From NCBI GenBank assembly GCA_965279525.1, contig CBDIIB010000005.1, positions 352,001 to 416,000 of the forward strand: a DNA stretch of 64,000 nt, given 5' to 3'. Made by a program: the position numbers and the translations under genes. Shown in pieces: positions 39,871 through 55,048 of this stretch. The notes beneath the pieces are model-generated. The model saw only the letters and a list, made by a program, of their open reading frames with translations. It ran no database searches and had not been told where the DNA came from. Within the stretch, counting starts at the first letter, position 1, and each line of letters starts with the position of its first letter. Origin of the DNA: Tagaea sp. (lineage in GTDB: Bacteria > Pseudomonadota > Alphaproteobacteria > CACIAM-22H2).

Positions 39871-40872
39871 CTAGCCCGCCCGTTTGCGCAGGTCGGCAAG
39901 CAGGTCGGCCGGCACCTTGATGCCGCCGGCGGCGGACGCGGCCCGCAGCTTCAGCCGCCGCTCGCCGGGCAGGCGCGTGCCGGATTGCGCGAGGATGGCG
40001 CCCAGCAGCACCTCCAGCCGCGTGGCGAACGCAGGGCCGGCGAAACGCTGGGGATCGATCAGCAGGAAGAACTGGCCCACGCGCGGCGGCCCGCCCTTGG
40101 CGTCGAAGAACGAGCTGGCTTCGTAGCCGAAATTCGATGCGGTGAGTGCGGCCGCGAGGATCTCGACCATCAGCACCAGCGCCGCCCCCTTGGCGTCGCC
40201 CAGCGGGAGCATCGTGCCGGCCATCGCCTTCTTGGGATCGGTCGTCGGATTGCCGTCGGGATCGAGCGCCCAGCCTTCGGGGATCGTCTCGCCTTTCTGG
40301 GCGGCCACCATGATCTTGCCGCGCGCGACCTTCGACAGCGACAGGTCGACGACGAGTGGCGCCTTGCCCGCGCGCGGAGCCGCGAACGCGATGGGGTTGG
40401 TGCCGAACAGTGCCTTCGACCCGCCCCACGGGGCGATGGCCGACGGCGAGTTGCCGAACAGGAGGGCGACCAGCCCTGCCTTCGCCGCCGCCTCGACGTG
40501 ATAGCCGGCCGCCCCGAAATGATGCGAGTTGCCGATCCCGACGCCCACGACACCGGCCGTCTTCGCCATGTCGATGCCCTTCGCGATGCCGGCGGCGATG
40601 GCCGGATAGGCGAACCCGTCCTTCGCGTCGACGAACAGCGCGCCGGGCGCGTTGACGCGCAGCTCGGGCACGGCCGTACCCGCGACCTTGCCGGCCTTGG
40701 CCTGGTCGGCATAGGCGGCGACACGGCTCAGACCGTGGCTGGCGAGCCCGTCGGCTTCCGCCGCGACGAGCGCGTCGGCGACGGCGCCCGCGTTGGCGGG
40801 TACCGTACCGGCGGCGACAAGTGCCTTCAGCACCAGCGCATGCGCGTCGGCCAGCGAAATGGTCTCGCTCAT
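39871..40872 (-). CDS. comC: Ldh_2-family oxidoreductase, (2R)-3-sulfolactate dehydrogenase-like
   Basis: EADGLASHG, NSHHFG, FGTNPIAF and G.AKG.AL. Directly downstream of slcC and in the same cluster as suyAB. Confidence 0.75.
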   Translation of the reverse strand: MSETISLADAHALVLKALVAAGTVPANAGAVADALVAAEADGLASHGLSRVAAYADQAKAGKVAGTAVPELRVNAPGALFVDAKDGFAYPAIAAGIAKGIDMAKTAGVVGVGIGNSHHFGAAGYHVEAAAKAGLVALLFGNSPSAIAPWGGSKALFGTNPIAFAAPRAGKAPLVVDLSLSKVARGKIMVAAQKGETIPEGWALDPDGNPTTDPKKAMAGTMLPLGDAKGAALVLMVEILAAALTASNFGYEASSFFDAKGGPPRVGQFFLLIDPQRFAGPAFATRLEVLLGAILAQSGTRLPGERRLKLRAASAAGGIKVPADLLADLRKRAG

Positions 40873-41819
40873 TTCGACCCCTTGATGCCGAGATTCGCCA
40901 ACGCACTGCGCACGTTGGCGACCGTCACGCTGGAAACGCGCACGTTGCCCTCGGCGGTCACGCCGGCGATGTGCGGCGTCAGCCACAGGCGCGGAGCACC
41001 TTCGAGCACCGAGCCCGCCTTCAGCGGCTCCTTGTCGAAGACGTCGATCGCGGCGCCGCCGAGCGTGCCGGCCTTCAGGGCGGCGGCCAGAGCGGCCTCG
41101 TCGATGATGCCGCCGCGCGACGTGTTGATCAGGATGGCGGACTTCTTCATCTTCGCGAGGCGCGCCGCGTCGATCAGGTTGCGCGTCTGCGGCGTCAAGG
41201 GCACATGCAGCGAGATCACGTCGGACGTGGCGCAAAGCTCCTCGACCGTGGCGATGCGTGTCACGCCGTACTGCTTCCACGCCGGATCGTCCGGCTTCAG
41301 CATCGGGTCGTAGGCCGCAAGATCCATTTCCAGCGCCTTCGCGCGCGTCGCGACCGCGCGCGCGATCCCGCCGAAGCCCACGAAGCCGAGGCGCTTGCCC
41401 ATCGCCTCGCCCAGCATCAGGTCGTTGCGCGGCCACTTGCCGGCGAGCACGTCGGCATTGGCCTTCCAAACGTCGCGAAGGCACACGAGCGTTGCCGCGA
41501 TCACGTATTCGGCGACCGAAACGGTGTTGGCCCCCGTCGCCGGGAAGACCTGGATGCCGCGCTTCGCGCATTCGTCCATGTCGATATTGTCGAGCCCGAC
41601 GCCCAGCCGGCCGATCACCTTCAGGTTCTTCATCGCGGCAAGCACGGGGCCGCGGACCTGCGTGAGGTTGCGCACGATGATCGCCGGGCTTTCCGCGGCA
41701 AGCTTCGCGAGTTCCTCGGGCTTCGACACGAGGGTGCGGTCGTAATGGACCTTGTAATCCTTCGCCAGATCGTCGACCGCCCACTGGTCGACGAATTCGC
41801 TCACGACGATGTCGTACAT
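40869..41819 (-). CDS. slcC: (S)-sulfolactate dehydrogenase-like D-2-hydroxyacid dehydrogenase
   Basis: N-terminus IVVSEF.D..AV..L...V.YD.TLV and IVRN.TQV...GRLGVGLDNID as in SlcC. Also G.GGIA, SLHVPLT and TPHIAG. Confidence 0.78.
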   Translation of the reverse strand: MYDIVVSEFVDQWAVDDLAKDYKVHYDRTLVSKPEELAKLAAESPAIIVRNLTQVRGPVLAAMKNLKVIGRLGVGLDNIDMDECAKRGIQVFPATGANTVSVAEYVIAATLVCLRDVWKANADVLAGKWPRNDLMLGEAMGKRLGFVGFGGIARAVATRAKALEMDLAAYDPMLKPDDPAWKQYGVTRIATVEELCATSDVISLHVPLTPQTRNLIDAARLAKMKKSAILINTSRGGIIDEAALAAALKAGTLGGAAIDVFDKEPLKAGSVLEGAPRLWLTPHIAGVTAEGNVRVSSVTVANVRSALANLGIKGSK

Positions 41820-41820
41820 T

Positions 41821-43434
41821 CTACATCTGCTCCATGTATTCGGCCGGATCGACGATTGCGTCGATGACCGTGAATTTGCGCGACGAAACGGCCGCCGCAA
41901 AGGCTTTTTCGAAGTCGGCCAGCGTTTCGACGCGCACGCCGACGGCCCCGCACGCCTGCCCGATCTGGTCGAAGCGCGGTCCCTTGAAGTCGACGGCACG
42001 CGGTGCCATCTGCATCTTGGCTTGCTTGAGCTTGATCAGCGACAGCGCCCCGTCATTGAGCACGACGACGACGATCGGCAGGCCCAGTTCGGCCGCCAGC
42101 GGCAGCTCGCCCGCCGTCATCAGCATGCAGCCGTCGCCGACCAGCGCCACGACGGGCGCATCCGGACAGGCAAGCTGCGCGCCGATGGCCGCCGGCACCG
42201 CATAGCCCATGCAGCACAGGCCGTTGGATTGCAGCAGCTGGCCGGACGACCGGCACTTGACCGAATGGTTGGCAAGGATGCGATGCGCGCCGACATCGAC
42301 CGTCAGTTTCCAGTCGGGTGCCACGCGGTCCGACACGGCCTTGAACAGGCCGGCGGGCGAAATGCCCTTGGCCGGAGCGCGCGGCCGCACGATGTGCGCG
42401 ACCGCATCGCGGCAGGCCTTGAGTGTCGCCGCGGGCCATGCACCCGCCCCTGGCTCGCCCGACGACGAAAGCTGGCCGAGCATCGCCGGCAGGTCGCCGT
42501 AGCATTCGGTGCCCAGCGGGAAAATGCGGTGGTTGAGCGGCCCCCAGTCGAGCGTGAGCACCGCGCGATCCTGCGGCCACGCATCAAGCCACGCATCGCG
42601 CAGCTCGATCGGATCGAAGCCGACGCACACGATCCGGTCCGCTTCGCGCACGATCTTCATGTTTTCGCCGTCCACGACCGGCGACAGGCCGACCGCGCCC
42701 AGGCACAGCGGATGGGCTTCGTCGATCACGCCCTTGGCCTTGTAGGTGGCGAAGAACGGCAGGCGCCAGGATTCGGCGAAACGGCGCAGCATGTCGGGCA
42801 CGCCTTCATGCACCGCCCCGCGCCCGACCAGCAGCAGCGGGCGCTTGGCGCGCGCGATCGCGAGGCGAGCCGCAACCGCCGCATCGCCGGCAAGTGCGGT
42901 GCGCGCGACCGCGACCGGGCGGGCATCGAAATTCTCGGTCGATTCCGCACGGCCCAGATCGGCCGGGATATTCAGCATCACCGGGCCGGCCGGATAGGCC
43001 ATCGCGATGTCGAGCGCGCGCGCCATCTGCTGGGCGGGGCGTGCCGCGTTGAGCGTGGCGGCATATTTGGTGACGGGTGTGGCCAGCGCCACATGGTCGA
43101 AGACCTGGTGGTTGTAGATCTGCGCGTTGGATGTGGCCATCTCGCCGGTCAGCACCGCAAGCGGCGAGCGCTCCATCAGTGCACCCGCGATGCCCGCCGT
43201 CGCGTTGGCGATGCCGGGGCCGAGTGCGGGGATCAGCACCTGCGGCCTGCCGGTGATCTGGCAAACCGCATCGGCCATGAACGCGGCAGCGGGTTCGGAT
43301 TTCGCCAGCACGAAGCGGATGCCGGCTTCCTCGCACGCGCGCACGGTTTCCAGCACGTCGTTGCCGGGGATGCCGAACGCGAACGTGGCCCCCCAGTTGC
43401 GCAAGGTGGCGGCAAGCTTGTCGGCGACTTTCAA
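41821..43434 (-). CDS. Thiamine-diphosphate enzyme (acetolactate-synthase-like fold), substrate unknown
   Basis: FGIPG, E..AAFMA, GPG..N and GDG.....(N)NDG motifs. TTG start with AGGAG RBS. Confidence 0.88.
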   Translation of the reverse strand: MKVADKLAATLRNWGATFAFGIPGNDVLETVRACEEAGIRFVLAKSEPAAAFMADAVCQITGRPQVLIPALGPGIANATAGIAGALMERSPLAVLTGEMATSNAQIYNHQVFDHVALATPVTKYAATLNAARPAQQMARALDIAMAYPAGPVMLNIPADLGRAESTENFDARPVAVARTALAGDAAVAARLAIARAKRPLLLVGRGAVHEGVPDMLRRFAESWRLPFFATYKAKGVIDEAHPLCLGAVGLSPVVDGENMKIVREADRIVCVGFDPIELRDAWLDAWPQDRAVLTLDWGPLNHRIFPLGTECYGDLPAMLGQLSSSGEPGAGAWPAATLKACRDAVAHIVRPRAPAKGISPAGLFKAVSDRVAPDWKLTVDVGAHRILANHSVKCRSSGQLLQSNGLCCMGYAVPAAIGAQLACPDAPVVALVGDGCMLMTAGELPLAAELGLPIVVVVLNDGALSLIKLKQAKMQMAPRAVDFKGPRFDQIGQACGAVGVRVETLADFEKAFAAAVSSRKFTVIDAIVDPAEYMEQM

Positions 43435-43444
43435 GGCAAGGCTC

Positions 43445-45166
43445 CTATTCGGCGGCCCGGTCGAGAAGGCTCTCGCCCGGCCGCACGCGGGTGAAGGCGA
43501 CGGGTTCCATCGCCACGTCGAGCGTGTCGGCGCGTGTCCGCACCAGCGTATAGCGCGACGTCGGCAGGTCACCGGCTTCCGGGTGGTCGGCGCGGAAATG
43601 GGCGCCGCGGCTGTCGGTGCGCGCGACGGCCGCCGCCCGGATCGATTTCGACACGGCGACGAGGTTCTTGAGGTTCAGCCAGTCATGCCAGGTGAGATTG
43701 AAGGCGCGCGTCGTCTCGGCCACGCCGGCCTCGTCGAGAGCGGCATCGAGATCGTCGAGCACGCCGCCGGCACGCGCGAGGCTGGCTGCATCGCGCACGA
43801 TGCCGACATCTTCCCACATCGTGTCGGCAAGCTTCTCGCGGATCGGCTCGAGGTCGCGCGGCTTGCGCGCGAACGGGGCAAGTGCGCGCGCGGTCGCGGC
43901 CGCGATGGCCGTTTCGTCGGGTGCACGCAGTTCGCCGCGCGCGGCCACCCAGCGCGCCATGCTGTCGCCGGCCAGCCCGCCGAACACGGTCGAGTTCGCC
44001 ACGCCGTTGCCGCCCAGCCGGTTGGCGCCATGCACGCCGCCGGTATCCTCGCCGGCCGCGAACAACCCGGTAAGATCCGTCGTGCAGTCGCCGCGGAACG
44101 GCACGCCGCCCATCATGTAGTGGGCCGTCGGCACCACTTCGACGCGCCCGCCGGCAAGATCGAAGCCGCAATCGGCGCAGCGTTCGACCATGCCTTTGAA
44201 GCTCTTGCGCACCATGTCAGGTCCCAGATGGTGCATCTGCAGATAGACGCCGCCAAGTGCGGTGCCGCGGCCCTTGCGCACGATGTCGAACACCGCGCGG
44301 CTGACGACGTCGCGCGTCGCGCGTTCGCCCTGCGCGTCGTACTCCGCCATGAAACGCGTGCCGTCCTTGTCGAGCAGCCAGCCGCCCGCCCCGCGCAGGC
44401 CCTCTTCCAGCACCGTGCCGGTCATGCGCGTGTCAGGTCCGGCGAGCAGGCCGGTGGGGTGGAACTGAACCATCTCCATGTCGCGCAAGGGCAGGCCGGC
44501 GCGCAGCGCCATCGCCATGCCGTCGCACGCCTTGTCGCCCGACGGCGTGTGGTAGCGGTACATGGTCGGTCCGCCGCCGGTTGCCAGCAAGACGGCCTTG
44601 GCGCGCACGAACACGAATTCGCCGTCGCGCATGTCGATCATCAGCACGCCGGCGAGCGCCGAGCCGTCGGCCGTGCGCACGAGCTCGATCGCGCGATGCT
44701 CTTCCAGCCGGTCGATGCCGCGCGCCCAGACCTGCTCGGCAAGGCGGTTGACGATCTCGATGCCGGTGAGGTCGCCCTTGTGGACGGTGCGGTCGAAGGT
44801 CTGCCCGGCGAACGCCTTCTGGTGGACCGTGCCGTCCGGGTTGCGGTCGAAGAAGCAGCCCAGCTCGTTCTCCAGCTCGCGGATGCGCACCTGCGCGACC
44901 GTGACGAGCGTCCAGGCGAGATCCTGGTCGTTGAGCCACTTGCCGCCCTCGATCGTGTCCATGAAATGGCGTTCGGCGCTGTCGCCTTGGGCGAGCGCCA
45001 CGTTGTAGCCGCCCTGCACCATGCGCGTGCAGCCGCACTTGCCGAGCAGGCCCTTGACCGCGATGGTGATCTTGAGCGCCGGGTCCGCCTTGTGCGCATG
45101 CAGCGCCGCGAACAGGCCCGCCCCGCCTGCACCCAATATCAGAATGTCGGTATCGACCCGCCTCAT
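43445..45166 (-). CDS. SdhA/FrdA/NadB-family flavoprotein paralogue
   Basis: GAGGAG, QGG, LATGG, QFHPT, RDVVSR, HYMMGG and HGANRLGGN. ATGA overlap. Confidence 0.9.
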   Translation of the reverse strand: MRRVDTDILILGAGGAGLFAALHAHKADPALKITIAVKGLLGKCGCTRMVQGGYNVALAQGDSAERHFMDTIEGGKWLNDQDLAWTLVTVAQVRIRELENELGCFFDRNPDGTVHQKAFAGQTFDRTVHKGDLTGIEIVNRLAEQVWARGIDRLEEHRAIELVRTADGSALAGVLMIDMRDGEFVFVRAKAVLLATGGGPTMYRYHTPSGDKACDGMAMALRAGLPLRDMEMVQFHPTGLLAGPDTRMTGTVLEEGLRGAGGWLLDKDGTRFMAEYDAQGERATRDVVSRAVFDIVRKGRGTALGGVYLQMHHLGPDMVRKSFKGMVERCADCGFDLAGGRVEVVPTAHYMMGGVPFRGDCTTDLTGLFAAGEDTGGVHGANRLGGNGVANSTVFGGLAGDSMARWVAARGELRAPDETAIAAATARALAPFARKPRDLEPIREKLADTMWEDVGIVRDAASLARAGGVLDDLDAALDEAGVAETTRAFNLTWHDWLNLKNLVAVSKSIRAAAVARTDSRGAHFRADHPEAGDLPTSRYTLVRTRADTLDVAMEPVAFTRVRPGESLLDRAAE

Positions 45167-45774
45167 GCCTTCACGCCGACGGCGGCGAGGGCTGCCGCAC
45201 GCCGGTCCTGCGCCGTGGCGCGGACCTTGTCGTAGATCGAGCCGCCATGGCTGTCCATCGCCACCAGCAGAGGCCCGAAGCCCTTCACCTGGAAATGCCA
45301 CAGGCTTTCGGGATTGAGATCGTCGAGATCGACGTCGACGATGCGCTCGATCCATGTCGTCTCGAGGGCTGCCGTGCCGCCGATGATCGCCAGATACGCC
45401 CCGCCCAGCTCCGTGAACGCCGCTTGCGAGGCCTCGCGCAGGCCGCCCTTGCCGATAATCAGGCGCACGCCGTACTGCGCCATCAGCGGCTTCGAGAAGC
45501 GCTCCATGCGGTCGGACGTCGTCGTGCCCACGCAGACCGGCTGGTAGCCGACCGGGCACTCGTTCGACAGCGGCACCTTGCGCACGTTGGGGGCCGTGTG
45601 GATCACGGCATGGCCCTTCATGTCGAAGCGCGTCGTGCGGCCGCGGTCGAACATGTGGATCTGGGTGGCGTCGCGGATGCCGAACAGCGAGCCGGTCAGC
45701 GTGACGGTATCGCCGGTCCGCAGGCTTCGCACCTGCGCCTCGTCCACCGGCATGCGGAATTCGTGGTGGGCCAT
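45163..45774 (-). CDS. Class I fumarate hydratase/tartrate dehydratase beta subunit paralogue
   Basis: GD.V.L.G....RDA, GTTTS.RM, IGKGG and FGPL.V.MD.HG. Confidence 0.9.
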   Translation of the reverse strand: MAHHEFRMPVDEAQVRSLRTGDTVTLTGSLFGIRDATQIHMFDRGRTTRFDMKGHAVIHTAPNVRKVPLSNECPVGYQPVCVGTTTSDRMERFSKPLMAQYGVRLIIGKGGLREASQAAFTELGGAYLAIIGGTAALETTWIERIVDVDLDDLNPESLWHFQVKGFGPLLVAMDSHGGSIYDKVRATAQDRRAAALAAVGVKA

Positions 45775-45778: not shown

Positions 45779-46666
45779 TCAGAACCCGATCTCGACGCCG
45801 GTCGGCGTGAAGGTGGCGCTCGCGCGCCTTGCCGAGTGGCACTGGATGTTGACGGCCACCGGATTCATCGTGATGTGCGTGGCCGCCGTCTCGACATGCA
45901 CCGCGAAGGCCGTGCCATCGCCACCAAGCCCCTGCGGGCCGATACCCAGCGAGTTGACCGCCCCCGACAGCAGCCTTTCGAGCTTGGCACCTTCTTCATC
46001 GTCGCACACGCTGCCGAGTGCGCGCGTCGCCGCGACCTTGGCGAGATGCATGCACAGGTCGGAGGTGCCACCGATCCCCACGCCCACGATGGTCGGCGGG
46101 CAGACCTTGCCGCCGGCTTCCATCACGCGATCGATGACGAAGGTCTTGATGCCGTCGATCCCGTCGGCCGGGATCAGCATCTTCAGGAACGAGCCGTTCT
46201 CCGACCCCGATCCCTTCGGGATCATCTCGATGCGCAAGGTGCGCGGGGCGTCGATGAAATCGATGTTGATGACCGGCACGCGGATGCCCGATGAGGTGTG
46301 CTCGTTCTTGCGCGTGATCGGATGCACGACCGACGAGCGCAGCGGGTATTCCTTCGTCGCGCGCGCCGTGCCGCGCCGGATCGCTTCCTTCAGCGCGATG
46401 CCGTCCACGTCCACGTCGCGGCCGATCTCGATGTTGAAGATCGGGATGCCGGTGTCCTGGCACAAGAGGTTGTCGGTCTTTTCGGCCACCGCGATGTTCT
46501 CGATCATCGTGGCGAGGATCGTGCGGGCCGTGCCGTCGGTCTCGGCGGCGTCCAGCCGCGTGAAGCCGCGCTTGATGTCGTCGGGCAGCAGCTTCAGCGC
46601 ACGTATATAGAGGAGCTTCGCCGCCTCCTCGACCGCCGCGATGTCGATATGGAGCTTTGCGCTCAC
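45779..46666 (-). CDS. Class I fumarate hydratase/tartrate dehydratase alpha subunit paralogue (Fe-S)
   Basis: CQDTG, PKGSGSEN, CPP.IVGVGIGG, GIGPQGLGG and QCHSARR. GTGA overlap. Confidence 0.9.
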   Translation of the reverse strand: MSAKLHIDIAAVEEAAKLLYIRALKLLPDDIKRGFTRLDAAETDGTARTILATMIENIAVAEKTDNLLCQDTGIPIFNIEIGRDVDVDGIALKEAIRRGTARATKEYPLRSSVVHPITRKNEHTSSGIRVPVINIDFIDAPRTLRIEMIPKGSGSENGSFLKMLIPADGIDGIKTFVIDRVMEAGGKVCPPTIVGVGIGGTSDLCMHLAKVAATRALGSVCDDEEGAKLERLLSGAVNSLGIGPQGLGGDGTAFAVHVETAATHITMNPVAVNIQCHSARRASATFTPTGVEIGF

Positions 46667-47781
46667 GACGCCTCCGCGTATCGCTTCAGGAGATCGGGGT
46701 CGGGATCGTAGCCGAGGCCGGGCCGGTCGGGCAGGTGCAGGCGCCCGGCGCGGATGTGCGGGAAATCGTCGAACACCGAATCGCGCAGCGGATTGTCCTG
46801 TGCGTCGACCTCCAGCCGCCCGTCGCCGCCGACTGCCGCCAGCAGGTGCGCGCTTGCCAGCAGGCCCACACCGCCGCCCAGATAATGCGGGCAGAACATG
46901 AAGCCGGCCTCGCGCACGGCACGCCCCAGCGGCACGCAAGCCGAGAAGCCGCCCCACTTGGCGATGTCGGGCTGCAACACGCCGAACGCGTTGGACGCGA
47001 TGGCTTCGCGGAACTGCGCGGCCCCACGCATGTTCTCGCCGCCCGCGATGGGAGCGGCACTGAGGCCCGCGACAAGCTGCCATTCGCCTTCGGGGGCATC
47101 GACCGCCAGCGGCTCCTCGATCCAGCCGAGATTGAAGGGTGCGAACTCGCGCACGCGGCGTGCGGCGGTCTCGGCGTCCCACGCCTGGTTGGCGTCGACC
47201 ACGATGAACGCCTTGGGCCCGAGGGCGGCACGAAGGCCCGCGATGTTCTTCAAGTCCGCCTCGGGTGCGAAGCCGACCTTGAGCTTGAAGCCGTCGTAGC
47301 TCTGCGCGAGGCGCACCAGCGCCTGCTCGACCGCACCGTCCGGACCGAGGCCGGAGGCATAGACCGCGACGTCGCTGCGCGCCCCGCCCAGATGCTTCCA
47401 CAGCGGCAGGCCGGCGCGGCGCGCGCTCAGGTCCCACAGCGCCTGGTCGATGCCGGCCAGCACCTGCGCGAAGGTGCCGGGCTCGCCGCACTGGAGCGAC
47501 AGGATGCGCGTCTTGCCTTCGAGGATATCGAAGGCCGCGCGCGGGTCCTCGAACGTCGCACCTTTGAGCAGCGGCGCGAAGATATCGTCGAACAGCCGGC
47601 GGCGGGCGGCACCGGCCCCGGGCGGGAAGTTGCACCAGATCTCGCCCCAACCGACGGCGCCGTCGGAATCCTCTAGACGAACGAGCAGCATCGTGCGCGC
47701 GCGCATGGCGCCGAACGCGGTGCGGATCGGCGTTGCGAGCGGATAGAGATGTAGCAGTGCCTGTGCGCGCGCGATTTTCAT
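46663..47781 (-). CDS. Mandelate racemase/muconate lactonising enzyme family protein
   Basis: GWGE, KLKVG, VDANQ, WIEEP, GGEN, QPD and CPH. ATG at 47781. Confidence 0.9.
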   Translation of the reverse strand: MKIARAQALLHLYPLATPIRTAFGAMRARTMLLVRLEDSDGAVGWGEIWCNFPPGAGAARRRLFDDIFAPLLKGATFEDPRAAFDILEGKTRILSLQCGEPGTFAQVLAGIDQALWDLSARRAGLPLWKHLGGARSDVAVYASGLGPDGAVEQALVRLAQSYDGFKLKVGFAPEADLKNIAGLRAALGPKAFIVVDANQAWDAETAARRVREFAPFNLGWIEEPLAVDAPEGEWQLVAGLSAAPIAGGENMRGAAQFREAIASNAFGVLQPDIAKWGGFSACVPLGRAVREAGFMFCPHYLGGGVGLLASAHLLAAVGGDGRLEVDAQDNPLRDSVFDDFPHIRAGRLHLPDRPGLGYDPDPDLLKRYAEAS

Positions 47782-47783: not shown

Positions 47784-48668
47784 CTAGCGCTGCATGCCCC
47801 AGCGGCGGACCGTGCGCGCCTCGACGGCGCGGAAGATCACGCCCTCGACGAACAGGCCGATGACGATGACGGTCAGCAATCCGGCAAACACGTTTGCGGT
47901 CTCCAGCAGGTTGCGGTTCTCGAAGATGTACCAGCCCAGCCCGCCCGAACGTGCCGAGACGCCGAACACCAGCTCGGCCGCGATCAGCGTTCGCCAGGCG
48001 AACGCCCAGCCGATCTTGAGGCCGGCCAGGATCGACGGGAACGCCGCCGGGATCAGGATCTTCATCACGAAGCGCACGCCGCGCAGCCCGTAGTTGGTGC
48101 CCGCCATGCGCAGCGTCTCGGAGACCGACTTGAAACCGGTATGCGTGTTGAGCGCCACCGCCCACAGGACCGAATGCACGATGACGAACACCAGCGACGG
48201 GATGCCGAGGCCGAACCACAGCAGGGCGAGCGGCAGCAACGCGATCGCCGGCAGCGGATTGAACATCGCGGTCAGCGTGGAAAGCAGGTCGTTGCCGAAG
48301 CGCGTGGAAACGGCAAGCGTCGTGAACACGGCCGCCAGTGCGAGCCCCGAGCCGTAGCCCACGAACAGCACCTGCAGTGTCGTGGCCATGCGCCCGAGCA
48401 GCGGGCCGGTTACGAACGCGTCGTAGAAGGCCTGCGCCACCTCGTGGAAGGGCGGGAACATCAGCGGATTGCCGAGCCAGCGCCCGTAGAGCTCCCAGGC
48501 ACCCGCCAGCGCCAGGACGATGACGAGACGCCGGATCCAGGTCTGGTTCCAGATGCGCTCGAAGGCGGAAAGCGGCCGCTCGACCTCGCCGAACTGGGCA
48601 GCCCCCACTTCGCGGACCTCGAATTCGGCGCGGACCGGCGGCGTGATGCGTGCGGCGGCGTCAACCAT
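47784..48668 (-). CDS. ABC permease (TauC/SsuC/NitT family)
   Basis: PLPAIALLPL..LWFG and AWRTLIAAEL. Confidence 0.92.
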   Translation of the reverse strand: MVDAAARITPPVRAEFEVREVGAAQFGEVERPLSAFERIWNQTWIRRLVIVLALAGAWELYGRWLGNPLMFPPFHEVAQAFYDAFVTGPLLGRMATTLQVLFVGYGSGLALAAVFTTLAVSTRFGNDLLSTLTAMFNPLPAIALLPLALLWFGLGIPSLVFVIVHSVLWAVALNTHTGFKSVSETLRMAGTNYGLRGVRFVMKILIPAAFPSILAGLKIGWAFAWRTLIAAELVFGVSARSGGLGWYIFENRNLLETANVFAGLLTVIVIGLFVEGVIFRAVEARTVRRWGMQR

Positions 48669-49470
48669 GGGCGTCCGCCTTCTCCTGCTCGATGCGTTCG
48701 GCGAACAGCATGTCGTGGATGCGCCGCTGCAGGGCCTGGAACTCGACCCCGCCCTGTGCCGTGTGGTCGAACTGGTGGCAGTTGAGCTCGGCCTTCACGC
48801 GGCCGGGATGCGGCGACAGCACGAGGATGCGGCTGCCCACAACGATGGCTTCCTCGATCGAGTGCGTGACGAACAGCACGGTGAAGCGCACGTCGTCCCA
48901 CAGCTCGAGGAGTTCTTCCTGCATCTTGCGCCGCGTCAGCGCATCGAGGGCCGCGTAGGGTTCGTCCATCAGCAGGATGTCGGGTTCCATCGCCATCGCG
49001 CGCGCGATGGCCACGCGCTGCTTCATGCCGCCCGACAGCATGTGCGGGTAGACGTCGATGAACTTGGTCAGGTTCACCTTCTCGATGAAGTGGCGCGCAC
49101 GCGCCGCCGCCTCGGTCTTGTTCCACTTGCCCGCGCACAGCATCGGGAACATGACGTTCTCGAGCACGGTCTTCCACGGCAGCAGCTGGTCGAATTCCTG
49201 GAAGACCATCATGCGGTCAGGACCCGGCCGGTCGATCGTGCGCCCGTTGAGCGCCATGGTGCCTTCGACCGGCGTCATGAAGCCGGCCACGCCCTTCAGC
49301 AGCGTCGACTTCCCGCAGCCCGATGGCCCCAGCAGCACGAACCGGTCGCCGCGCTGCACCTCGAAACTGACGCGGTACGTCGCGGTGACCAGATGTTCGG
49401 CCGTCTTGTACTGGAGCGTCACCCCGTCGACCTTCAGGATCGGCGGGGTGACGCCGGAGGCGTCTGCCAT
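48661..49470 (-). CDS. ABC ATPase (TauB/SsuB family)
   Basis: GPSGCGKST, LLPW.TV.ENV, LSGGMKQR and FVTHSIEEA. Confidence 0.93.
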   Translation of the reverse strand: MADASGVTPPILKVDGVTLQYKTAEHLVTATYRVSFEVQRGDRFVLLGPSGCGKSTLLKGVAGFMTPVEGTMALNGRTIDRPGPDRMMVFQEFDQLLPWKTVLENVMFPMLCAGKWNKTEAAARARHFIEKVNLTKFIDVYPHMLSGGMKQRVAIARAMAMEPDILLMDEPYAALDALTRRKMQEELLELWDDVRFTVLFVTHSIEEAIVVGSRILVLSPHPGRVKAELNCHQFDHTAQGGVEFQALQRRIHDMLFAERIEQEKADAHG

Positions 49471-49486
49471 CGTCAAGCCGCTCCGC

Positions 49487-50506
49487 CTAGGATCCCTGCA
49501 CGCCGTGCAGGCCGGGGAAGAACATCTCCTTCCAGTCGGCCGGCTTTTCCTTGACCGTGCCGGTGCGCTGCATGAACTCGGCGTACTTCATCGTGTTCTT
49601 CGGCACGACGGTGAACTCGTGCTGCGGATCGTTGAGGAGCGACATCACGAATTCCTTCGGCGGCGCTCCCTTCTCGACGCGCATGTAGATGTCGGCCGCG
49701 CGGTTCTTGTCGTTCGTGATGATGGCCTGCGCCTCGACGAGCGCATCCTGGAACGCCTTGTAGACGCGCGGGTTCTGCGTGCGGACCTTGTCGGTCGTCC
49801 AGACGAAGTTGAACGAGCACGGGCCGCCCAGCACCTCGTAGTTCGACAGCACGCGCTTCACCTTGGCGTCCTGGAGCTGCAGGTTCTGGAAGGGCGGCGA
49901 GCCGAAATGCGCCGTGATCTCGCTCTTGCCCGACATCATCGCGTTCATCGCGTCGGGGTGCGACATCGAGACGGTGATGTTGTCGAGCCTGTCGTGCTTG
50001 CCGGCACCGAAGGCCTTCTCGCAGGCCATCTGGAGCGTGATGGCCTGGATGGAGACGCGCACGGCCGGCAGGCCGATGCGGTCCTTGTCGGTGAAGTCGG
50101 CGATGGTCTTGACGGCGGGATTGACGGTGTTGAGGTAGAGCGGAAGCGAATTGAGCGAGGCCACGCCCTTGACGTTGAGCGAGCCCTTGGTGCGCGCCCA
50201 CAGCACGATCATCGGCCCCACGCCGCCACCGGCGAATTCGAGATTGCCCGAGATCAGCGCGTCGTTGATGGGGGCACCGCCCGCGAACTGGAGCCAGTTC
50301 GTCTTGACGTTGGGAAGGCCCGCGGCAGCCGCGTGCTTCTCGATCAGCTTCAGGTCTTCCATGATCATCAGCGGCAGGTAGGAGATGCCGAACTGCTTGG
50401 CGATGCGCACTTCGCCGATCTCCTGCGCGTGCGCGATCCCGGGGGCGGCGAGCACGGCGGCGGCGCCGGCGACGAAGGCGCGGCGGGTCGGACGGATATC
50501 GGACAT
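49487..50506 (-). CDS. ABC substrate-binding protein (TauA/SsuA/NitT family), Tat signal
   Basis: TRRAF signal, QFGISYLP, LPAV.VSIQA and HF.SPPFQ. Confidence 0.88.
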   Translation of the reverse strand: MSDIRPTRRAFVAGAAAVLAAPGIAHAQEIGEVRIAKQFGISYLPLMIMEDLKLIEKHAAAAGLPNVKTNWLQFAGGAPINDALISGNLEFAGGGVGPMIVLWARTKGSLNVKGVASLNSLPLYLNTVNPAVKTIADFTDKDRIGLPAVRVSIQAITLQMACEKAFGAGKHDRLDNITVSMSHPDAMNAMMSGKSEITAHFGSPPFQNLQLQDAKVKRVLSNYEVLGGPCSFNFVWTTDKVRTQNPRVYKAFQDALVEAQAIITNDKNRAADIYMRVEKGAPPKEFVMSLLNDPQHEFTVVPKNTMKYAEFMQRTGTVKEKPADWKEMFFPGLHGVQGS

Positions 50507-50585: not shown

Positions 50586-51314
50586 TCAGGCAACGAGAAC
50601 GACTCCCGAAGCCAGCAGCAATCCCAAGACGATACGCCGGAACGTCGCGTCGTCGACGCGCGCATAGAGCCGGAGGCCGATCCACACGCCCAGCGCCACG
50701 GCCGGCAGGCACCACAGGAAATCCGAAACCGCCTGCGGGCCGATCCCGCCGTCGAAATAAAGATAGACGAGCGCCACGGCCTGCATGACGAAGATGTAAG
50801 GCTGGTAGACGCCGCGCTGCTCGTTTTTCGACCAGCCGCGCAGGCCGGTCCACGGCGTGGGGATCGCCCCCGACAGGCCGCCGAGCCCGCCCAGCACCCC
50901 GCCGACGAAGCCGACCGCCCCGTCGAGCGGTGCCCCGCCGAAACGGATCGGCCGCGGCACCCCGCGCGCCAGCATGTAGATGGCATAGACGACGAGGAAG
51001 ACGCCGATCGCGCGCTTCAGCGGCTCGGGCGACACGCTCTGCAGCAGCAGCACGCCGAGCGGGATGCCGATCACGCCACCGATCAGGAACGGGGCGAGCC
51101 GACGCCAGTCGATCGCGTCGCGCACGCCGAGAATCGAGAAGGTCTGCGCCAGCAGGCTCGCCGCCAGCACCAGGGGGGTGGCATCAACCGGCAGGCGCAG
51201 ATGCAGATAGACCGCCGACGCGATCAGCGCGAAGGCGAACCCCGCCAGCCCCGACGCGATGGCCGCCACGAAAGACGCGAGCATCAGCCAGACTTCGCTC
51301 GGCACTTCGTTCAT
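50586..51314 (-). CDS. TauE/SafE-family sulfite exporter
   Basis: Hydrophobic protein with SG.AGFAFAL and GG.LGG..GL.G motifs. ATGA overlap with the sdhC-like gene. Confidence 0.85.
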   Translation of the reverse strand: MNEVPSEVWLMLASFVAAIASGLAGFAFALIASAVYLHLRLPVDATPLVLAASLLAQTFSILGVRDAIDWRRLAPFLIGGVIGIPLGVLLLQSVSPEPLKRAIGVFLVVYAIYMLARGVPRPIRFGGAPLDGAVGFVGGVLGGLGGLSGAIPTPWTGLRGWSKNEQRGVYQPYIFVMQAVALVYLYFDGGIGPQAVSDFLWCLPAVALGVWIGLRLYARVDDATFRRIVLGLLLASGVVLVA

Positions 51315-51673
51315 GCCGCCATCACGTTGAACGCGAACAGCAACCCCGCCGCGATCGCGAAACCGGCACTGGCGGCGACGGCCGTCTTCTGCCGGTCGCT
51401 CCACGGCAGGAACTCGACCGCCAGCAGACGCACGCCGCCGGCCATGTGCGCGGCGAGCAGCACGACGAGACCGGTCTCGGCGAACTTGACCAATGCGTTG
51501 TCGGTCCAGCGCAGCATGCCGTCCAGTGCGGCCTCGCCGCCGATGGCCGTACCCAGCGCCCAGAAATGCAGCGGCACGAAAAGCGTCAGCGCCAGCCCGG
51601 ACAACCGGTGCACGGCAAACGCCCACCACGCGGGGTGCTTGCGGTGCCGAAAAGAGGGGGGCGGCCGGTTCAT
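51311..51673 (-). CDS. Succinate dehydrogenase cytochrome b subunit-like membrane anchor
   Basis: HRLSG, H..GGVR and three TM segments. Confidence 0.85.
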   Translation of the reverse strand: MNRPPPSFRHRKHPAWWAFAVHRLSGLALTLFVPLHFWALGTAIGGEAALDGMLRWTDNALVKFAETGLVVLLAAHMAGGVRLLAVEFLPWSDRQKTAVAASAGFAIAAGLLFAFNVMAA

Positions 51674-52014
51674 GCGAACAGGCCGGCGACCGCGCGCCAG
51701 CCGAACCAGACGAGGAATGCCGCGAACGTGGCGGTCGCCAGATCAAGCGCCGGGCCGCGCCAGCCGAACGTCTCGCGCAGGATGGCGCGCAGGCCGACGG
51801 GGGCATGGACCGCGACCGCGAGAACGAACAGGCCGTAGAACAACGCCAGGCCGAACGAACCGCGCGTGCGCGACAGGATCTCGGCGGCCGTCAGCCCGCC
51901 GCGCACCGCATAGAGGATCGTGGCCAGATGCACGAGCACGCACACGGCGAGCACGGCGGCACTGGCGCGTTGCGCCCCCCACAGCAGCGTTTCGGCGCGC
52001 GCGCGAAATCTCAT
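51670..52014 (-). CDS. Succinate dehydrogenase hydrophobic anchor-like subunit
   Basis: QRASA..L, HL, H..VGLR and three TM segments. ATGA overlaps. Confidence 0.83.
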   Translation of the reverse strand: MRFRARAETLLWGAQRASAAVLAVCVLVHLATILYAVRGGLTAAEILSRTRGSFGLALFYGLFVLAVAVHAPVGLRAILRETFGWRGPALDLATATFAAFLVWFGWRAVAGLFA

Positions 52015-52724
52015 GCCCCGCCCTTCCATGCCGCGCGCAGCGTGGCGCGCTTCAGCCCCGCGATCGACGCGGTGGGGTTGAGCGATTTGGGGCAGTGCTC
52101 GCGGCACGACTGGTGCGAATGGCAGGCATGGCAGCCCGCGTCGCCGGCGACCGCGTCGAGACGCTCGGCGTTGCCGGCATCGCGCACGTCGTTGACCAGC
52201 GTCCACGCGCGGTTGAGGGCGGCGGGCCCGAGATACTCGGCGTTCCACGCCACGAGATCGCAGGCCGAATAGCACACCGCACAGCCGATGCACTCGATGC
52301 CCGCGTCGGCGGCTTTTCGTTCGGCACTTGCCGGCTCGACCACCGCGAAATCCGCACCGGCGTCGGCCGAGGGCACGAACCTTCCGCCGGCCTTCGCCCA
52401 TTTGTCGAAGAACGGCGCCATGTCGGCGGCGAGATCCTTGATGCGCGGCAGGTTGCGCAGCGGCTCGACCGTCAGCGGGCCGCCTTCCAGACGCGACACG
52501 TGCGTGCGGCAGGTCCAGCGAGGCTTGCCGTTTACCGTCATCGCGCACGAGCCGCACATGCCCACGCGGCACGCGAATCGGTACGAGAGCGTCGGGTCGA
52601 GCTTGCGCTGGATATATGTGACCACGTCGAGCACGGTCTGGCTCGCGCGGCGCGGAACGGAAAAGGTCTCGAACCTTCCGTCCGCGCCGCCGCGCCAGAT
52701 CCGCGCGTCGATCGTGTCGGCCAC
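52011..52724 (-). CDS. SdhB/FrdB-like iron-sulfur subunit
   Basis: CRVGMCGSC...C, CIGCAVCYSAC and CHSHQSC..HCP. Confidence 0.92.
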   Translation of the reverse strand: MADTIDARIWRGGADGRFETFSVPRRASQTVLDVVTYIQRKLDPTLSYRFACRVGMCGSCAMTVNGKPRWTCRTHVSRLEGGPLTVEPLRNLPRIKDLAADMAPFFDKWAKAGGRFVPSADAGADFAVVEPASAERKAADAGIECIGCAVCYSACDLVAWNAEYLGPAALNRAWTLVNDVRDAGNAERLDAVAGDAGCHACHSHQSCREHCPKSLNPTASIAGLKRATLRAAWKGGA

Positions 52725-52731
52725 GAAGGGC

Positions 52732-53940
52732 CTAGGCGCTCTGGTAGAGCTTCGTCATCACGAATTCGCGATGCCCGAGGGCCTCGGCGCAGGTGTAGCG
52801 GCCGTTGCACACGCGGATCATCACGTCGATCAGACGGTCGCCCGCCTCATCGAGATCCATCTCGCGGCGCAGGATGCCGGAGACGTCGAGATCGATATGC
52901 TCGGGCATCTCGCGCGCGGTCTTCGGGTTCGCCGTGAGCTTGATGACCGGCTCGATCGGGTTGCCGATGACGTTGCCCTGCCCCGTCGGGAACAGGTGCA
53001 CGACGAAACCGGCGGCCGCCTGCAGGGTCACGCATTCGGCCGCGGCCGACGACGTGTCCATGAAGTAGAGACCTGCCCCCTTCTTGGGCATCTCGGCGGG
53101 GGCGAGCACGTCCACGTACTTCGTCTTGTGGCCGATCTTCTGGAAATTGCCGAAGGCCTTTTCCTCGATCGTCGTCAGGCCGCCCGCGATGTTGCCCTTG
53201 GTCGGCTGGGATTCCGACAGGTCGCTCGTCTTGAAGCGGTTGATCATGTCCTGGTAGGCGTTGAAGATCGTCATGAACTTGTCGGCGGTCTTCTTGTCGA
53301 CCGCGCGCTTGACCATCTCCTTCTCGGCCCCGGTCAGCTCCGAGGTCTCGCCAAAGCACGTGGTGGCACCCAGCGGATCGACCTTGTCGATGAGGTTGCC
53401 GACCGTCGGGCACGAGGCGAGGCCCGACGTGGTGTCGGACTCGCCGCACTTGGTCGAGACCCACAGCTCCTCGATCGTGCACTGCTCGCGCTGCTTCTCG
53501 GTCGCCCACATGACGAACTGCTGCGCCACGCGGCTGGCGGCCTCGATCGTGCGCAGGTCGCCGTTGCCTTCGATGGCGAAGCCCTGCACGGGCTTGCCGG
53601 TCTTGGCGATGCCTTCGACCACGCGGCCCGTCCAGCCCGGCTCGATGCCGATGACGACGACGGCCGCGACGTTGGCGTTGCAGCCGGTGCCGATCAGCGT
53701 GCGGAAGTGGAGTGCGAGATCCTCGCCGAACTGCAGGCGCCCGTAGGCGTGCGGCAGCGCCATCGTGCCCTTGATGTTGTTGGCGACGGCTTCGGCCGCC
53801 GCGTTCGACAGGTCGTCGAGCGGCAGGATGATGACGTGGTTGCGGATGCCGACACGCCCGTTTTCGCGGCGATAGCCCATGAAGGGCAGCTTGCCGGTGT
53901 TCTTCGAGCGCTTCTTGATGATCGCGGGGGCCTTGGCCAT
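52732..53940 (-). CDS. suyB: (2R)-sulfolactate sulfo-lyase beta subunit (UxaA family)
   Basis: [44 protein letters not shown] and FPTGQG. Split UxaA architecture. Confidence 0.82.
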
Positions 53941-53953
53941 GTCGATCTCTCCC

Positions 53954-54238
53954 TTACCAGCGCTTGGTTTTCATGTTGTGGATATGGACGTGGTCGCCCT
54001 TCTTGGTATCCGCGACGACCTTGCCGATGTCGTGCCCGTACTTGATCACGGTGTCGCCCTTCTTGAGGTCGACCATCGCGATCTTGTGGCCGAGCGGAAT
54101 GGCCTTGAGCGCCTTCACGCGCACGGTCCCGTCGCCTTCCATGAGCCAGCCTTCGAGGGCGGCACCCGGCTTGACGGTTTCGACGACGATGACACCGACG
54201 GTGTCCTTCTTGTCGTGGACGATGAATTGGGTCGCCAT
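53954..54238 (-). CDS. suyA: (2R)-sulfolactate sulfo-lyase alpha subunit (SAF domain)
   Basis: [21 protein letters not shown] and HVH.HN.KTKRW. Confidence 0.82.
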
Positions 54239-54312
54239 TTCCCCCTCGCGGTTTTTATGGGTTGTCGGATGGTCGCGAACGCTACGCCCGGCTTGCGCGA
54301 CCCGTCAACCGG

Positions 54313-54326
54313 GTCTTATATAAGAC
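54313..54326. promoter_or_regulatory. GntR/HutC-type operator palindrome
   Basis: Perfect 14-bp palindrome GTCTTATATAAGAC between the divergent suyA and gntR genes. Confidence 0.78.
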
Positions 54327-54334
54327 TCGAGATC

Positions 54335-55048
54335 ATGGAAACGCGCCCGCTCTACCGCCAGATCAAGGAAGCGCTGATGCGCCGTCTCGTCGACGGGCGC
54401 TGGCGTGCGGGCGAGCTGATCCCGTCCGAGCATGCGCTCGCATCCGAGCTTGGCGTGAGCCAGGGCACGGTGCGCCGGTCGCTCGACGAGCTGGCCCGCG
54501 CCAACCTCGTCGTGCGCCGGCAGGGCAAGGGCACGTTCGTGGCCGAGCACACGCGCGAGCGCGCCCTGTTCCACTTCTTCCATCTGGTCGGCGACGACGG
54601 CAAGCGGGCTTTGCCCGGCAGCCGCGTGCTGGCCGTCAAGGCGGGGCCGGCCTCGCGCGAGGAAGCGCGCCGGCTCGAACTTGCCGCCGGCGCGAAAGTG
54701 GTGCGGCTCCATCGCCTGCGCATGCTCGACGGGCGTGCCGCGATCGTCGAGCGCATCGTGCTGCCGGCCACCCTTTATGACGGGATCGAACGGCTCGACC
54801 GCGCGGGCCTGCCCAACGAGCTCTACAAGCTCTACCAGGACCGCTACGGCGTGTCGGTCGCGCGCGCGGCCGAAAAACTGAAGGCCGCCCCGGCGGGGCC
54901 GGAAGATGCCGCACATCTGGGCCTGCGCAGCGGGGCGGCCGTGCTGGAGATCGACCGGATCGCCTACGCGCTCGACGGCAGGCCCTGCGAATGGCGGGTA
55001 TCCCGCTGCGATACGGCCGCCCACCACTACGTTTCCGAAGTGGTCTAG
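54335..55048 (+). CDS. GntR-family regulator, HutC subfamily (UTRA domain)
   Basis: PLY.QIK, IPSE..LA...GVSQGTVR, RRQGKGTFV and a C-terminal UTRA domain. Confidence 0.93.
   Translation: METRPLYRQIKEALMRRLVDGRWRAGELIPSEHALASELGVSQGTVRRSLDELARANLVVRRQGKGTFVAEHTRERALFHFFHLVGDDGKRALPGSRVLAVKAGPASREEARRLELAAGAKVVRLHRLRMLDGRAAIVERIVLPATLYDGIERLDRAGLPNELYKLYQDRYGVSVARAAEKLKAAPAGPEDAAHLGLRSGAAVLEIDRIAYALDGRPCEWRVSRCDTAAHHYVSEVV

Follow-up and report, generated by a model that had tools for sequence, protein, structure and literature searches.

The stretch of Tagaea sp. DNA analysed here (the window, 64,000 nucleotides (nt) long and numbered from its first letter) carries 18 genes in a single run on the minus strand, from 54238 down to 37607. 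In it, genes for a paralogue of complex II, or succinate dehydrogenase (SDH), and for a two-subunit iron-sulfur (Fe-S) hydratase stand among genes for the degradation of sulfolactate. An earlier note on this DNA had proposed that the set serves to oxidise 3-sulfopropionate (3-SP) to 3-sulfoacrylate, to hydrate the latter to sulfolactate and to cleave this to pyruvate and sulfite. The region has a G+C content of 67%, and its raw lists of open reading frames (ORFs) were full of false frames; gene calling by third-position GC assigned wrong strands here, so we used Pfam-guided models instead, scanning candidate frames with Pfam and NCBIfam and then inspecting start codons.

The run opens with a suyA-like gene for the small SAF-domain subunit of sulfolactate sulfo-lyase (53954-54238), which matches only the N-terminal 78 positions of galactarate dehydratase, and a suyB-like gene for the large subunit of (2R)-sulfolactate sulfo-lyase (52732-53940; Pfam GD_AH_second and GD_AH_C). 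These are followed by sdhB', encoding the iron-sulfur subunit of the complex II paralogue (52011-52724; Fer2_3 and Fer4, below NCBIfam equivalog cut-offs), by the genes for two membrane anchors, the first SdhD-like (51670-52014; TIGR02968 weak, Sdh_cyt 33.4 bits and above cut-off) and the second SdhC-like, of the cytochrome b556 type (51311-51673; Sdh_cyt above cut-off, TIGR02970 55.4 bits against a cut-off of 52.3), and by a gene for a TauE/SafE-family anion exporter, presumably for sulfite (50586-51314; Pfam TauE, 117.8 bits). An ATP-binding cassette (ABC) transporter comes next, made up of an SsuA/NMT1-like periplasmic binding protein (49487-50506; NMT1_2 weak, TIGR01728 of the SsuA family 59.7 bits and below cut-off), an ATPase (48661-49470; Pfam ABC_tran) and a permease (47784-48668; Pfam BPD_transp_1). 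Beyond an MR/MLE enzyme of the enolase superfamily (46663-47781; NCBIfam talarate/galactarate dehydratase-like, 149.6 bits against 500) lie fumA' and fumB', for the alpha and beta subunits of a class I Fe-S hydratase that we call type 1 (45779-46666, Pfam Fumerase; 45163-45774, Pfam Fumerase_C), and sdhA', for the complex II flavoprotein (43445-45166; FAD_binding_2 and Succ_DH_flav_C). The run continues with an acetolactate-synthase-like thiamine diphosphate (ThDP) enzyme (41821-43434; TPP_enzyme N, M and C domains), a slcC-like D-2-hydroxyacid dehydrogenase (40869-41819; 2-Hacid_dh and 2-Hacid_dh_C) and a comC-like Ldh_2 dehydrogenase (39871-40872), and closes with an acyl-CoA dehydrogenase (ACAD; 38724-39866; Acyl-CoA_dh N, M and 1 domains) and a family III CoA-transferase (37607-38722; CoA_transf_3 343 bits, below NCBIfam cut-offs). 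A GntR/UTRA regulator of the HutC/PhnF type is divergently encoded on the plus strand (about 54350-55048, the start being approximate; Pfam GntR and UTRA, with NCBIfam HutC/PhnF-like models below their cut-offs). Adjoining it, a plus-strand ORF at 54906-56192 is strongly coding (third-position GC 0.89, up to 428 amino acids (aa)); Pfam and NCBIfam gave no match for this ORF.

Every gene named in the earlier note was thus placed by the Pfam and NCBIfam scans, on one strand and in the stated order, together with the divergent GntR gene. Its description of mostly overlapping stop and start codons was overstated, as overlaps (of 4-8 nt) occur at just 7 of the 17 junctions, beside 9 gaps of 1-16 nt and one gap of 79 nt, which lies between tauE and the binding-protein gene. 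Its gene list held, and its lower boundary at 39871 did not: the ACAD and CoA-transferase genes, both omitted from its scheme, follow the comC-like gene at gaps of 4 and 1 nt and would be co-transcribed with it down to 37607. On the same strand, 110 nt past the CoA-transferase gene, a consensus scan picked out a terminator-like hairpin followed by a T-run (37476-37495).

The same genome holds a canonical sdhC-sdhD-sdhA-sdhB cluster (C5:1492762-1496152), whose SdhA has the usual SHT and ITEG motifs and shares 34% identity with SdhA', as well as a separate single-chain class I FumA (C5:1042), which bears out the view that the SDH and fumarase genes of the operon are extra paralogues; the presence of a canonical sdhCDAB elsewhere was one of the checks that the earlier note had asked for. 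A search of the genome with SdhA' (E <= 1e-10) returned two family members, SdhA' itself and the canonical SdhA; with SdhA' as the only query used, L-aspartate oxidase (NadB) was not found. Some homologues of SdhA' are named L-aspartate oxidase by PGAP, an assignment that we rejected because SdhA' scores 337.7 bits, short of the NadB cut-off (452.75), and has SdhB'C'D' partners. The operon encodes the full make-up of a complex II, namely a flavoprotein, an Fe-S subunit with the motifs of three clusters (canonical Cys motifs at residues 52-60, 145-155 and 201-211 of SdhB') and membrane anchors. SdhA' matches complex II flavoprotein structures at E values of about 1e-75 to 1e-80; it reaches no NCBIfam equivalog cut-off, its best match being TfrA at 495 bits against 718, and SdhB', at 195 bits against an equivalog cut-off of 228, passes the broad TIGR00384 subfamily model only.

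We mapped the residues of SdhA' by alignment to Escherichia coli FrdA (PDB 1kf6) and to 80 relatives. His236, Arg285, His349 and Arg383, which we take from the E. coli literature to be the substrate-binding and catalytic, dicarboxylate-binding residues, are invariant, and Gln51, which on the same basis we assume to mark SdhA-type rather than FrdA-type proteins, is kept. At two other positions the protein departs from its canonical relatives. Cys46 (in GCT) replaces the FAD-linking His (in SHT), presumably the equivalent of FrdA His44 with its 8-alpha-N3-histidyl-FAD, and Glu254 (in LEEG), which follows a 6-residue insertion, replaces the active-site loop Thr, presumably that of FrdA Thr244 and SdhA Thr254. 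Cys46 and Glu254 are kept in 101 of 101 SdhA' homologues, among them copies on plasmids and a haloarchaeal protein that is 49% identical. The invariance of Cys46 suggests that it has a function, one possibility being a cysteinyl-flavin link.

The hydratase resembles two-subunit class I fumarate hydratase. FumA' matches 7xky_A at E=1e-69 and passes the fumarate hydratase model NF004885 (309.5 bits against 276), while FumB', at 124-137 bits against 264-269, falls below every equivalog cut-off; the alignment to 7xky_B nonetheless has the RD, TTTS and GKGG motifs of the beta subunit in place. The fumarase motifs (CQDTG, KGSGSEN, GTTTSxRM and GKGG) are kept in type 1, to which the window hydratase belongs. 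A second type, 34-42% identical to the window hydratase, has altered active-site motifs, alpha-subunit scores of 198-213 bits against the fumarate hydratase cut-off of 276, and the gene order sdhB'-D'-C'-A'-fumA-fumB; it was seen in loci L089-L093, L095, L096 and L101-L113, and also in L043 and L081, L043 holding both types in tandem. Other hydratase families also replace the fumarase beside SdhA'B': the haloarchaeon Natribaculum has an ArgH-like lyase there, with SuyAB and TauE, and L075 has an AcnX homologue, with no FumAB match within the available stretch. The presence of such non-orthologous hydratases supports a logic of dehydrogenation followed by hydration. The separate FumA, together with the restriction of the two-subunit hydratase to genomes with SdhA' (see below), argues that the window hydratase is probably not the cell's fumarase.

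The SuyA-like and SuyB-like proteins, of 94 and 402 aa, are encoded by separate genes 13 nt apart, a split into two subunits that the available part of PMC6336799 describes as unique to SuyAB within the UxaA/GarD superfamily. Window SuyB is 69.2% identical, over 95% of its length, to a UxaA-family gene product of Cupriavidus pinatubonensis encoded in a cluster of order hpsN-hpsO-MFS-hpsP-suyA-suyB, and near homologues carry the JGI name suyB. These two features favour the reading of the pair as SuyAB, rather than as a sugar-acid dehydratase, and we regard it as the SuyAB orthologue, for which cleavage of (R)-sulfolactate is predicted. SuyAB should lack four Cys that are conserved in the other UxaA/GarD enzymes; when window SuyB is aligned to GarD (6u7l), Arg and Ile stand at two of the GarD Cys positions, and two Cys appear kept. 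Two further UxaA/SuyAB-like genes of the genome (C4:1327265-1329607 and C4:1198744-1200189), 30-37% identical, probably encode sugar-acid dehydratases; one of them lies close to an MR/MLE gene and a ThDP gene.

SlcC is a member of the D-2-hydroxyacid dehydrogenase family, and the slcC-like gene adjoins an Ldh_2 gene here, in Paracoccus versutus and in Methylobacterium radiotolerans. The pair is found in 24 of 80 related loci. The comC-like protein does not reach the NCBIfam L-sulfolactate dehydrogenase model (209.5 bits against 500), and its score for ureidoglycolate dehydrogenase is nearly equal (201.8); family and context are what support the assignment of the slcC-like and comC-like genes, which we treat as candidates. 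According to the accessible text of PMC12421959, SlcC and ComC form a two-enzyme sulfolactate racemase, SuyAB cleaves (R)-sulfolactate and TauE exports sulfite.

A homologue scan with one genome per species gave more than 590 SdhA' relatives, and gene content was counted around the best 80 of these (70-76% identical), many of whose loci are cut by contig ends. They come mostly from Burkholderiales, and also from Methylobacterium, Chelatococcus, Xanthobacter and others. Beside sdhA' (80/80), the most frequent genes are fumB' (70), fumA' (66), anchor 2 (63), sdhB' (62) and anchor 1 (55), then comC (46), suyA and suyB (38 each), the ABC ATPase (27), slcC (24), the permease (20), the binding protein (18, with 53-63% identity in the relatives) and tauE of the window's subfamily (11). 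The CoA-transferase (3), the ACAD (2), a ThDP enzyme of the window's type (2) and the MR/MLE enzyme (1) are rare. The core sdhB'-anchor-anchor-fumA'-fumB'-sdhA' recurs in 62-70 of the 80 related loci, and the arrangement is therefore not a product of chance. Neighbouring genes were compared by all-against-all BLAST of ORFs on 32 loci, a procedure in which the choice of ORFs by conservation merged or lost some small genes; 22 of these loci have a homologue of the GntR/UTRA regulator.

At the level of whole genomes, we sampled 400 Alphaproteobacteria besides the window's own genome (SdhA' at E <= 1e-150, SuyB at E <= 1e-120). SdhA' was present in 33 of them, small planktonic genomes included, and SuyB likewise in 33, the two together in 15. 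All 33 genomes with SdhA' have a FumA-like two-subunit hydratase, as against 2 of the 367 without it. Association with SuyB depends on hydratase type: SuyB was found in 8 of the 9 genomes with type 1 (76-83% identical to window FumA'), in 7 of the 24 with type 2 (34-42%) and in 18 of the 367 lacking SdhA'. The sole type-1 genome without SuyB is an assembly in 590 contigs. Five further type-1 genomes, in which the locus has no suyAB within 10 kb, all hold a SuyB of 69-75% identity elsewhere. Both the locus counts (suyAB in 38 of 80) and the type-1 genomes (SuyB in 13 of 14, against a background of 18 of 367) thus tie the SDH'/hydratase module to SuyAB, as the earlier note had supposed.

Around the module in other bacteria, recurrent neighbours include a second TauE subfamily, TctC receptors, LysR and GntR regulators and a ThDP enzyme of another subfamily than the window's (28 of 89 sequences), and rarer ones a sulfatase, ComA with DUF3604, AcnX, DctA-type carriers, TauD and hpsO/hpsP-like dehydrogenases. 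The adjacent transporters are of the tripartite tricarboxylate (TTT), tripartite ATP-independent periplasmic (TRAP), DctA or ABC kind. In several loci (L020, L047, L075, L095, L119 and L120) ComA, of the phosphosulfolactate synthase family, a 750-aa DUF3604 protein and an AcnX-type dehydratase lie in or beside the module, and in four from Burkholderiales (L009, L018, L026 and L011) a sulfatase-family gene (Pfam Sulfatase and SGSH_C) lies between the anchors and fumA'. In P. versutus the module is accompanied by TauE, slcC/comC, a TTT transporter, GntR and hpsP/O/N-like genes, with SuyB 22 kb from sdhA'; in M. radiotolerans and Paraburkholderia, an SDH' module and a suyAB-dctA-slcC-comC module each have their own transporter. 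DctA-type carriers occur with the module in Paraburkholderia and Methylobacterium.

The annotated plasmid modules that have no suyAB nearby, that of P. versutus included, are all of type 2, their hydratases being 34-39% identical to that of the window. On a plasmid of Pseudomonas sp. MPC6 (L092, 10494-18550) the order is sdhB'D'C'A'-fumA-fumB-MmsA-NIPSNAP-YeiH, TauE, an OprD porin and a sulfite oxidase with cytochrome c are encoded nearby, and suyAB is absent from the stretch; MmsA, a CoA-acylating (methyl)malonate-semialdehyde dehydrogenase, directly follows fumB, which suggests malonate semialdehyde as the product. A plasmid module of Pseudorhizobium NT-26 comes with YeiH, NIPSNAP, TauE, a TRAP system, an NAD(P)-binding dehydrogenase of the beta-hydroxyacid type and a succinate-semialdehyde dehydrogenase. 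By analogy, this set would match conversion of 3-hydroxypropanesulfonate via 3-sulfopropanal to 3-SP, mirroring the path from gamma-hydroxybutyrate via succinate semialdehyde to succinate. On a plasmid of Sulfitobacter THAF37 (L090) the module is accompanied by a ThDP enzyme, an MR/MLE enzyme, TauE and a TTT transporter; a gene that PGAP names 3-sulfinopropanoyl-CoA desulfinase lies about 10 kb from this type-2 module (26490-27662), a hint that the metabolism of 3-sulfinopropionate and that of 3-sulfopropionate may be connected. Some chromosomal type-2 loci have no sulfonate gene nearby, among them one (G103) with an enoyl-CoA hydratase, a CoA-transferase, an alginate-lyase-like gene and a TRAP system.

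Of the remaining genes of the window operon, the ACAD and CoA-transferase appear to be neighbours at the level of the family, and the MR/MLE and ThDP genes lineage-specific insertions. Two genomes of the same family (G172 and G312) keep the whole operon, ACAD and CoA-transferase included, without the MR/MLE and ThDP genes, whose absence there points to recent insertion in the lineage of the window. The window MR/MLE protein is 41% identical to the one beside the Sulfitobacter THAF37 module. For the window ThDP enzyme the best NCBIfam match is PRK08322, at 325.5 bits against 509. We rejected its identification as Xsc (TIGR03457 180 bits against 676; Xsc models 180-197 against 620-676), and Xsc was not found in the genome, where the best match to an Xsc model scored 289.6 bits and below cut-off. 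We likewise rejected it as a conserved partner of the module, as it is 26-33% identical to the ThDP family of the 28 sequences named above and only one locus (L071) shares its type. The window ACAD lacks the Glu of medium-chain acyl-CoA dehydrogenase (MCAD) and has the 'AERI' Glu of isovaleryl-CoA dehydrogenase (IVD), positions that we assigned from the MCAD and IVD motifs. Its identification as the 3-sulfinopropanoyl-CoA desulfinase Acd was rejected, since it scores 204.8 bits against 600 for NF042439, is 27% identical to the PGAP-named Sulfitobacter member and keeps the candidate catalytic Glu. The genes that flank the operon are unrelated to it: cobS/cobT, a DnaJ-domain gene and a nucleotidase gene lie on one side, and on the other are a two-component system and a TTT transporter. 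Positions 1-6000 of the window have a G+C content of 52-55% against 66-72% in the remainder, and this low value may mark them as foreign DNA.

Gene content, paralogy, conservation, co-occurrence and residue patterns were observed directly. From them we infer the substrate, the direction of the reaction, the product and its stereochemistry, and we judge it somewhat better than an even bet that the operon serves the catabolism of a small, dianionic C3 sulfonate, with 3-SP as the likeliest substrate. In this scheme 3-SP, an analogue of succinate, would be imported by the SsuA-like ABC system and oxidised to 3-sulfoacrylate by the membrane-bound, quinone-linked complex of SdhA', SdhB' and the two anchors. 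The type-1 [4Fe-4S] hydratase would then hydrate sulfoacrylate, with the hydroxyl placed next to the carboxylate, to (2R)-3-sulfolactate, which under the stereochemical sequence rules should be the spatial equivalent of L-malate and is the SuyAB substrate. SuyAB would split (R)-sulfolactate into pyruvate and sulfite, TauE would export the sulfite, and the GntR-type regulator would control the operon. The SlcC-like and ComC-like enzymes would interconvert (S)- and (R)-sulfolactate via sulfopyruvate, so that imported sulfolactate of either hand could be used. For the type-1 module, this reading, which is that of the earlier note, is the simplest account of context, conservation and co-occurrence. 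A C3 skeleton fits the succinate-semialdehyde dehydrogenase, dehydrogenase and TRAP system of NT-26 and the DctA carriers of Paraburkholderia and Methylobacterium. The choice of 3-SP in particular is favoured by the DctA, TTT, TRAP and ABC carriers beside the module, which are typical of small dianions, by the likeness of the NT-26 gene set to the route from gamma-hydroxybutyrate to succinate, and by a thesis that the available text of PMC11489063 cites for the sequence 3-SP, sulfoacrylate, sulfolactate.

Several observations weigh against this scheme. In E. coli fumarate reductase, loss of the FAD-linking His abolishes succinate oxidation and leaves fumarate reduction intact. The absence of this His from SdhA' accordingly argues against easy oxidation of a succinate-type substrate, and oxidation of 3-SP would need a cysteinyl-flavin link or some other tuning; the loop Thr, moreover, is an invariant Glu with a 6-residue insertion. 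A linear route does not need comC, present in 46 of 80 loci and often without slcC, nor the conserved ThDP enzyme of the other subfamily in 28 of 89 sequences, and the window's own ThDP and MR/MLE genes, absent from its two closest relatives, have no role in the scheme of the earlier note. Among type-2 genomes SuyB occurs in just 7 of 24, and the MPC6 operon carries MmsA after fumB, contexts that point to another product, at least for type 2. Nothing in the residue comparison of the hydratase with 7xky, or in that of SdhA' with 1kf6, separates 3-SP from sulfosuccinate. The genome counts, including the 13 of 14 type-1 genomes with SuyB, include related genomes and are not independent, and Fisher values overstate their significance. 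Finally, the available part of PMC12421959 reports that in P. wurundjeri a 'fumarate and tartrate metabolism' cluster and a TauE homologue go up on sulfofucose, a source of sulfolactate; that cluster may be the SDH' module, but a homologue search and a cluster look-up of 10 NCBI proteins returned no accession of the P. wurundjeri strain. If the two are the same, the module would be induced by a sulfonate that yields sulfolactate rather than 3-SP.

Among other explanations, the same enzyme logic could act on another sulfonated analogue of succinate such as sulfosuccinate, which would pass via sulfofumarate to 3-sulfomalate and then, by ComC-type oxidation and loss of CO2, to sulfopyruvate, whose reduction would give (R)-sulfolactate for cleavage by SuyAB. 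A true dicarboxylate with a sulfonate side group would be well served by the two carboxylate-binding His/Arg pairs, neither of which is disrupted, and comC, the most frequent partner (46 of 80 loci) and often without slcC, would serve twice. Set against this are the C3 accessory genes found elsewhere (the NT-26 succinate-semialdehyde dehydrogenase and TRAP system, the Pseudomonas MmsA), the lack of a conserved decarboxylase, and the spread of the module through 33 of 400 Alphaproteobacteria, small planktonic genomes included, for a substrate known mainly as a man-made surfactant head group; we consider this route unlikely. Distinctly unlikely, for the window, is the addition of water to the sulfonate-bearing carbon of sulfoacrylate, which would give an alpha-hydroxysulfonate that falls apart into malonate semialdehyde and sulfite and would leave SuyAB, SlcC and ComC to imported sulfolactate only, the SDH', hydratase and TauE genes then forming a full desulfonation route of their own. 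In its favour are the MPC6 operon, with MmsA and YeiH, with TauE and a sulfite oxidase nearby and with suyAB missing from the stretch, several other modules that have TauE or YeiH and no suyAB nearby, and the separate transporters of the SDH' and suyAB modules in M. radiotolerans and Paraburkholderia. The plasmid examples without suyAB are, however, all of type 2, with altered motifs and scores below the fumarate hydratase cut-off, whereas in the window type the fumarase motifs are preserved, and 13 of 14 genomes with it also have SuyB; in the window itself, suyAB and sdhB' are 7 nt apart.

The complex might also run in reverse, as a quinol:sulfoacrylate reductase, with sulfolactate dehydrated, sulfoacrylate serving as electron sink, 3-SP exported by TauE and SuyAB supplying pyruvate. 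This would agree with the missing FAD-linking His and, if the P. wurundjeri cluster that goes up on sulfofucose is this module, with its response to a source of sulfolactate; the accessible text of PMC11489063 names a TauE as a probable 3-SP exporter of Enterococcus gilvus. Gln51 of the SdhA type, anchors of the SdhC/D haem-b type, hosts that are mostly aerobic Burkholderiales, Methylobacterium and Paracoccus, and the uptake systems and 3-SP-forming aldehyde and alcohol dehydrogenases beside the module speak for oxidation instead and make the reverse direction quite improbable. Generic PGAP and JGI names (FAD-binding protein, L-aspartate oxidase, fumarate hydratase) and type-2 loci such as G103, with no sulfonate gene nearby, would allow the SDH and fumarase paralogues to act on a non-sulfonated acid, in the manner of methylsuccinate/mesaconate or tartrate, and merely to lie beside sulfolactate genes. 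We hold this to be very improbable in view of SuyB in 13 of 14 type-1 genomes against 18 of 367, of the TauE, ComA, TauD, sulfatase and hpsO/P-like genes that recur around the module, and of the suyAB and tauE genes interleaved with the sdh genes of the window. Returning to the oxidation of 3-SP as the preferred reading, a wider and more doubtful proposal, though one with a real chance of being right, is that the widespread complex II branch with the invariant Cys for the FAD-linking His (possibly carrying an 8-alpha-S-cysteinyl flavin) and the loop Glu oxidises 3-SP to the quinone pool, and that the hydratase type sets the fate of sulfoacrylate: type 1 would yield (R)-sulfolactate for SuyAB, and type 2 would add water at the sulfonate carbon, with spontaneous loss of sulfite to leave malonate semialdehyde, which would amount to a new, lyase-free cleavage of the C-S bond.

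3-SP is made by gut and other fermenters from 2,3-dihydroxypropane-1-sulfonate (DHPS) derived from sulfoquinovose, and also from homotaurine. Cupriavidus necator H16 excretes it, according to the available part of PMC11489063 (2024), which also cites the thesis mentioned above, on degradation of homotaurine by Roseovarius nubinhibens ISM via 3-SP, sulfoacrylate and sulfolactate, and otherwise describes 3-SP degradation as unreported; a 2026 review (PMC12890257), in its accessible part, calls it unreported or unclear. Our full-text literature searches, whose scope leaves out most subscription journals and theses, found no paper assigning these genes. Should the module prove to be the route, its genes become candidates for a step still missing from the organosulfur cycle, with homologues in 33 of the 400 Alphaproteobacteria sampled and in many Burkholderiales. 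SdhA'B' would then belong to a complex II relative dedicated to a sulfonate, the first of its kind, and SdhA', having no histidyl-FAD link, would be a natural test of the rule that this link is needed for succinate-type oxidation. New here are the two hydratase types, which depend on SuyAB to unequal degrees, the counts at genome level, the finding of how widely the Cys/Glu signature extends and the recognition of the MR/MLE and ThDP genes as insertions.

The complex II paralogue shares with E. coli SdhCDAB (1nek) and FrdABCD (1kf6) its four subunits, the three Fe-S motifs, two Sdh_cyt anchors and the catalytic His/Arg set, and differs from them in the Cys for the FAD-linking His, the Glu for the loop Thr, the 6-residue insertion and scores below cut-offs; unlike in the E. 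coli sdh and frd operons, its gene order is split (sdhB'-C'-D' ... fumA'B'-sdhA') and set among sulfonate genes. With two-subunit class I fumarate hydratase (7xky) and L-tartrate dehydratase TtdAB, the window hydratase has in common the Cys ligand motifs, the RD, TT and KGG motifs of the beta subunit and an alpha subunit above cut-off, but its beta subunit is below all cut-offs, it is paired with SdhA', and its presumed substrate is sulfoacrylate, not fumarate. The 3-sulfinopropionate route of Advenella and Variovorax proceeds through the CoA-transferase Act and the desulfinase Acd; an ACAD-family gene and a family III CoA-transferase likewise close the window operon, although its ACAD is not a member of the Acd desulfinases. 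The R. nubinhibens thesis route has the same proposed intermediates as our preferred reading, and, as cited in the available text of PMC11489063, names no genes or enzymes for the steps from 3-SP to sulfoacrylate and sulfolactate. The accessible text of PMC12421959 describes neither a complex II paralogue nor an Fe-S hydratase within sulfolactate degradation. With the known sulfolactate modules that this text covers (Chromohalobacter salexigens, Paracoccus pantotrophus and P. wurundjeri), the window shares the split SuyA and SuyB, a D-2-hydroxyacid dehydrogenase beside an Ldh_2 enzyme, TauE and a GntR-type regulator; what sets the window module apart is that these genes are interleaved with those of a four-subunit complex II paralogue and a two-subunit Fe-S hydratase.

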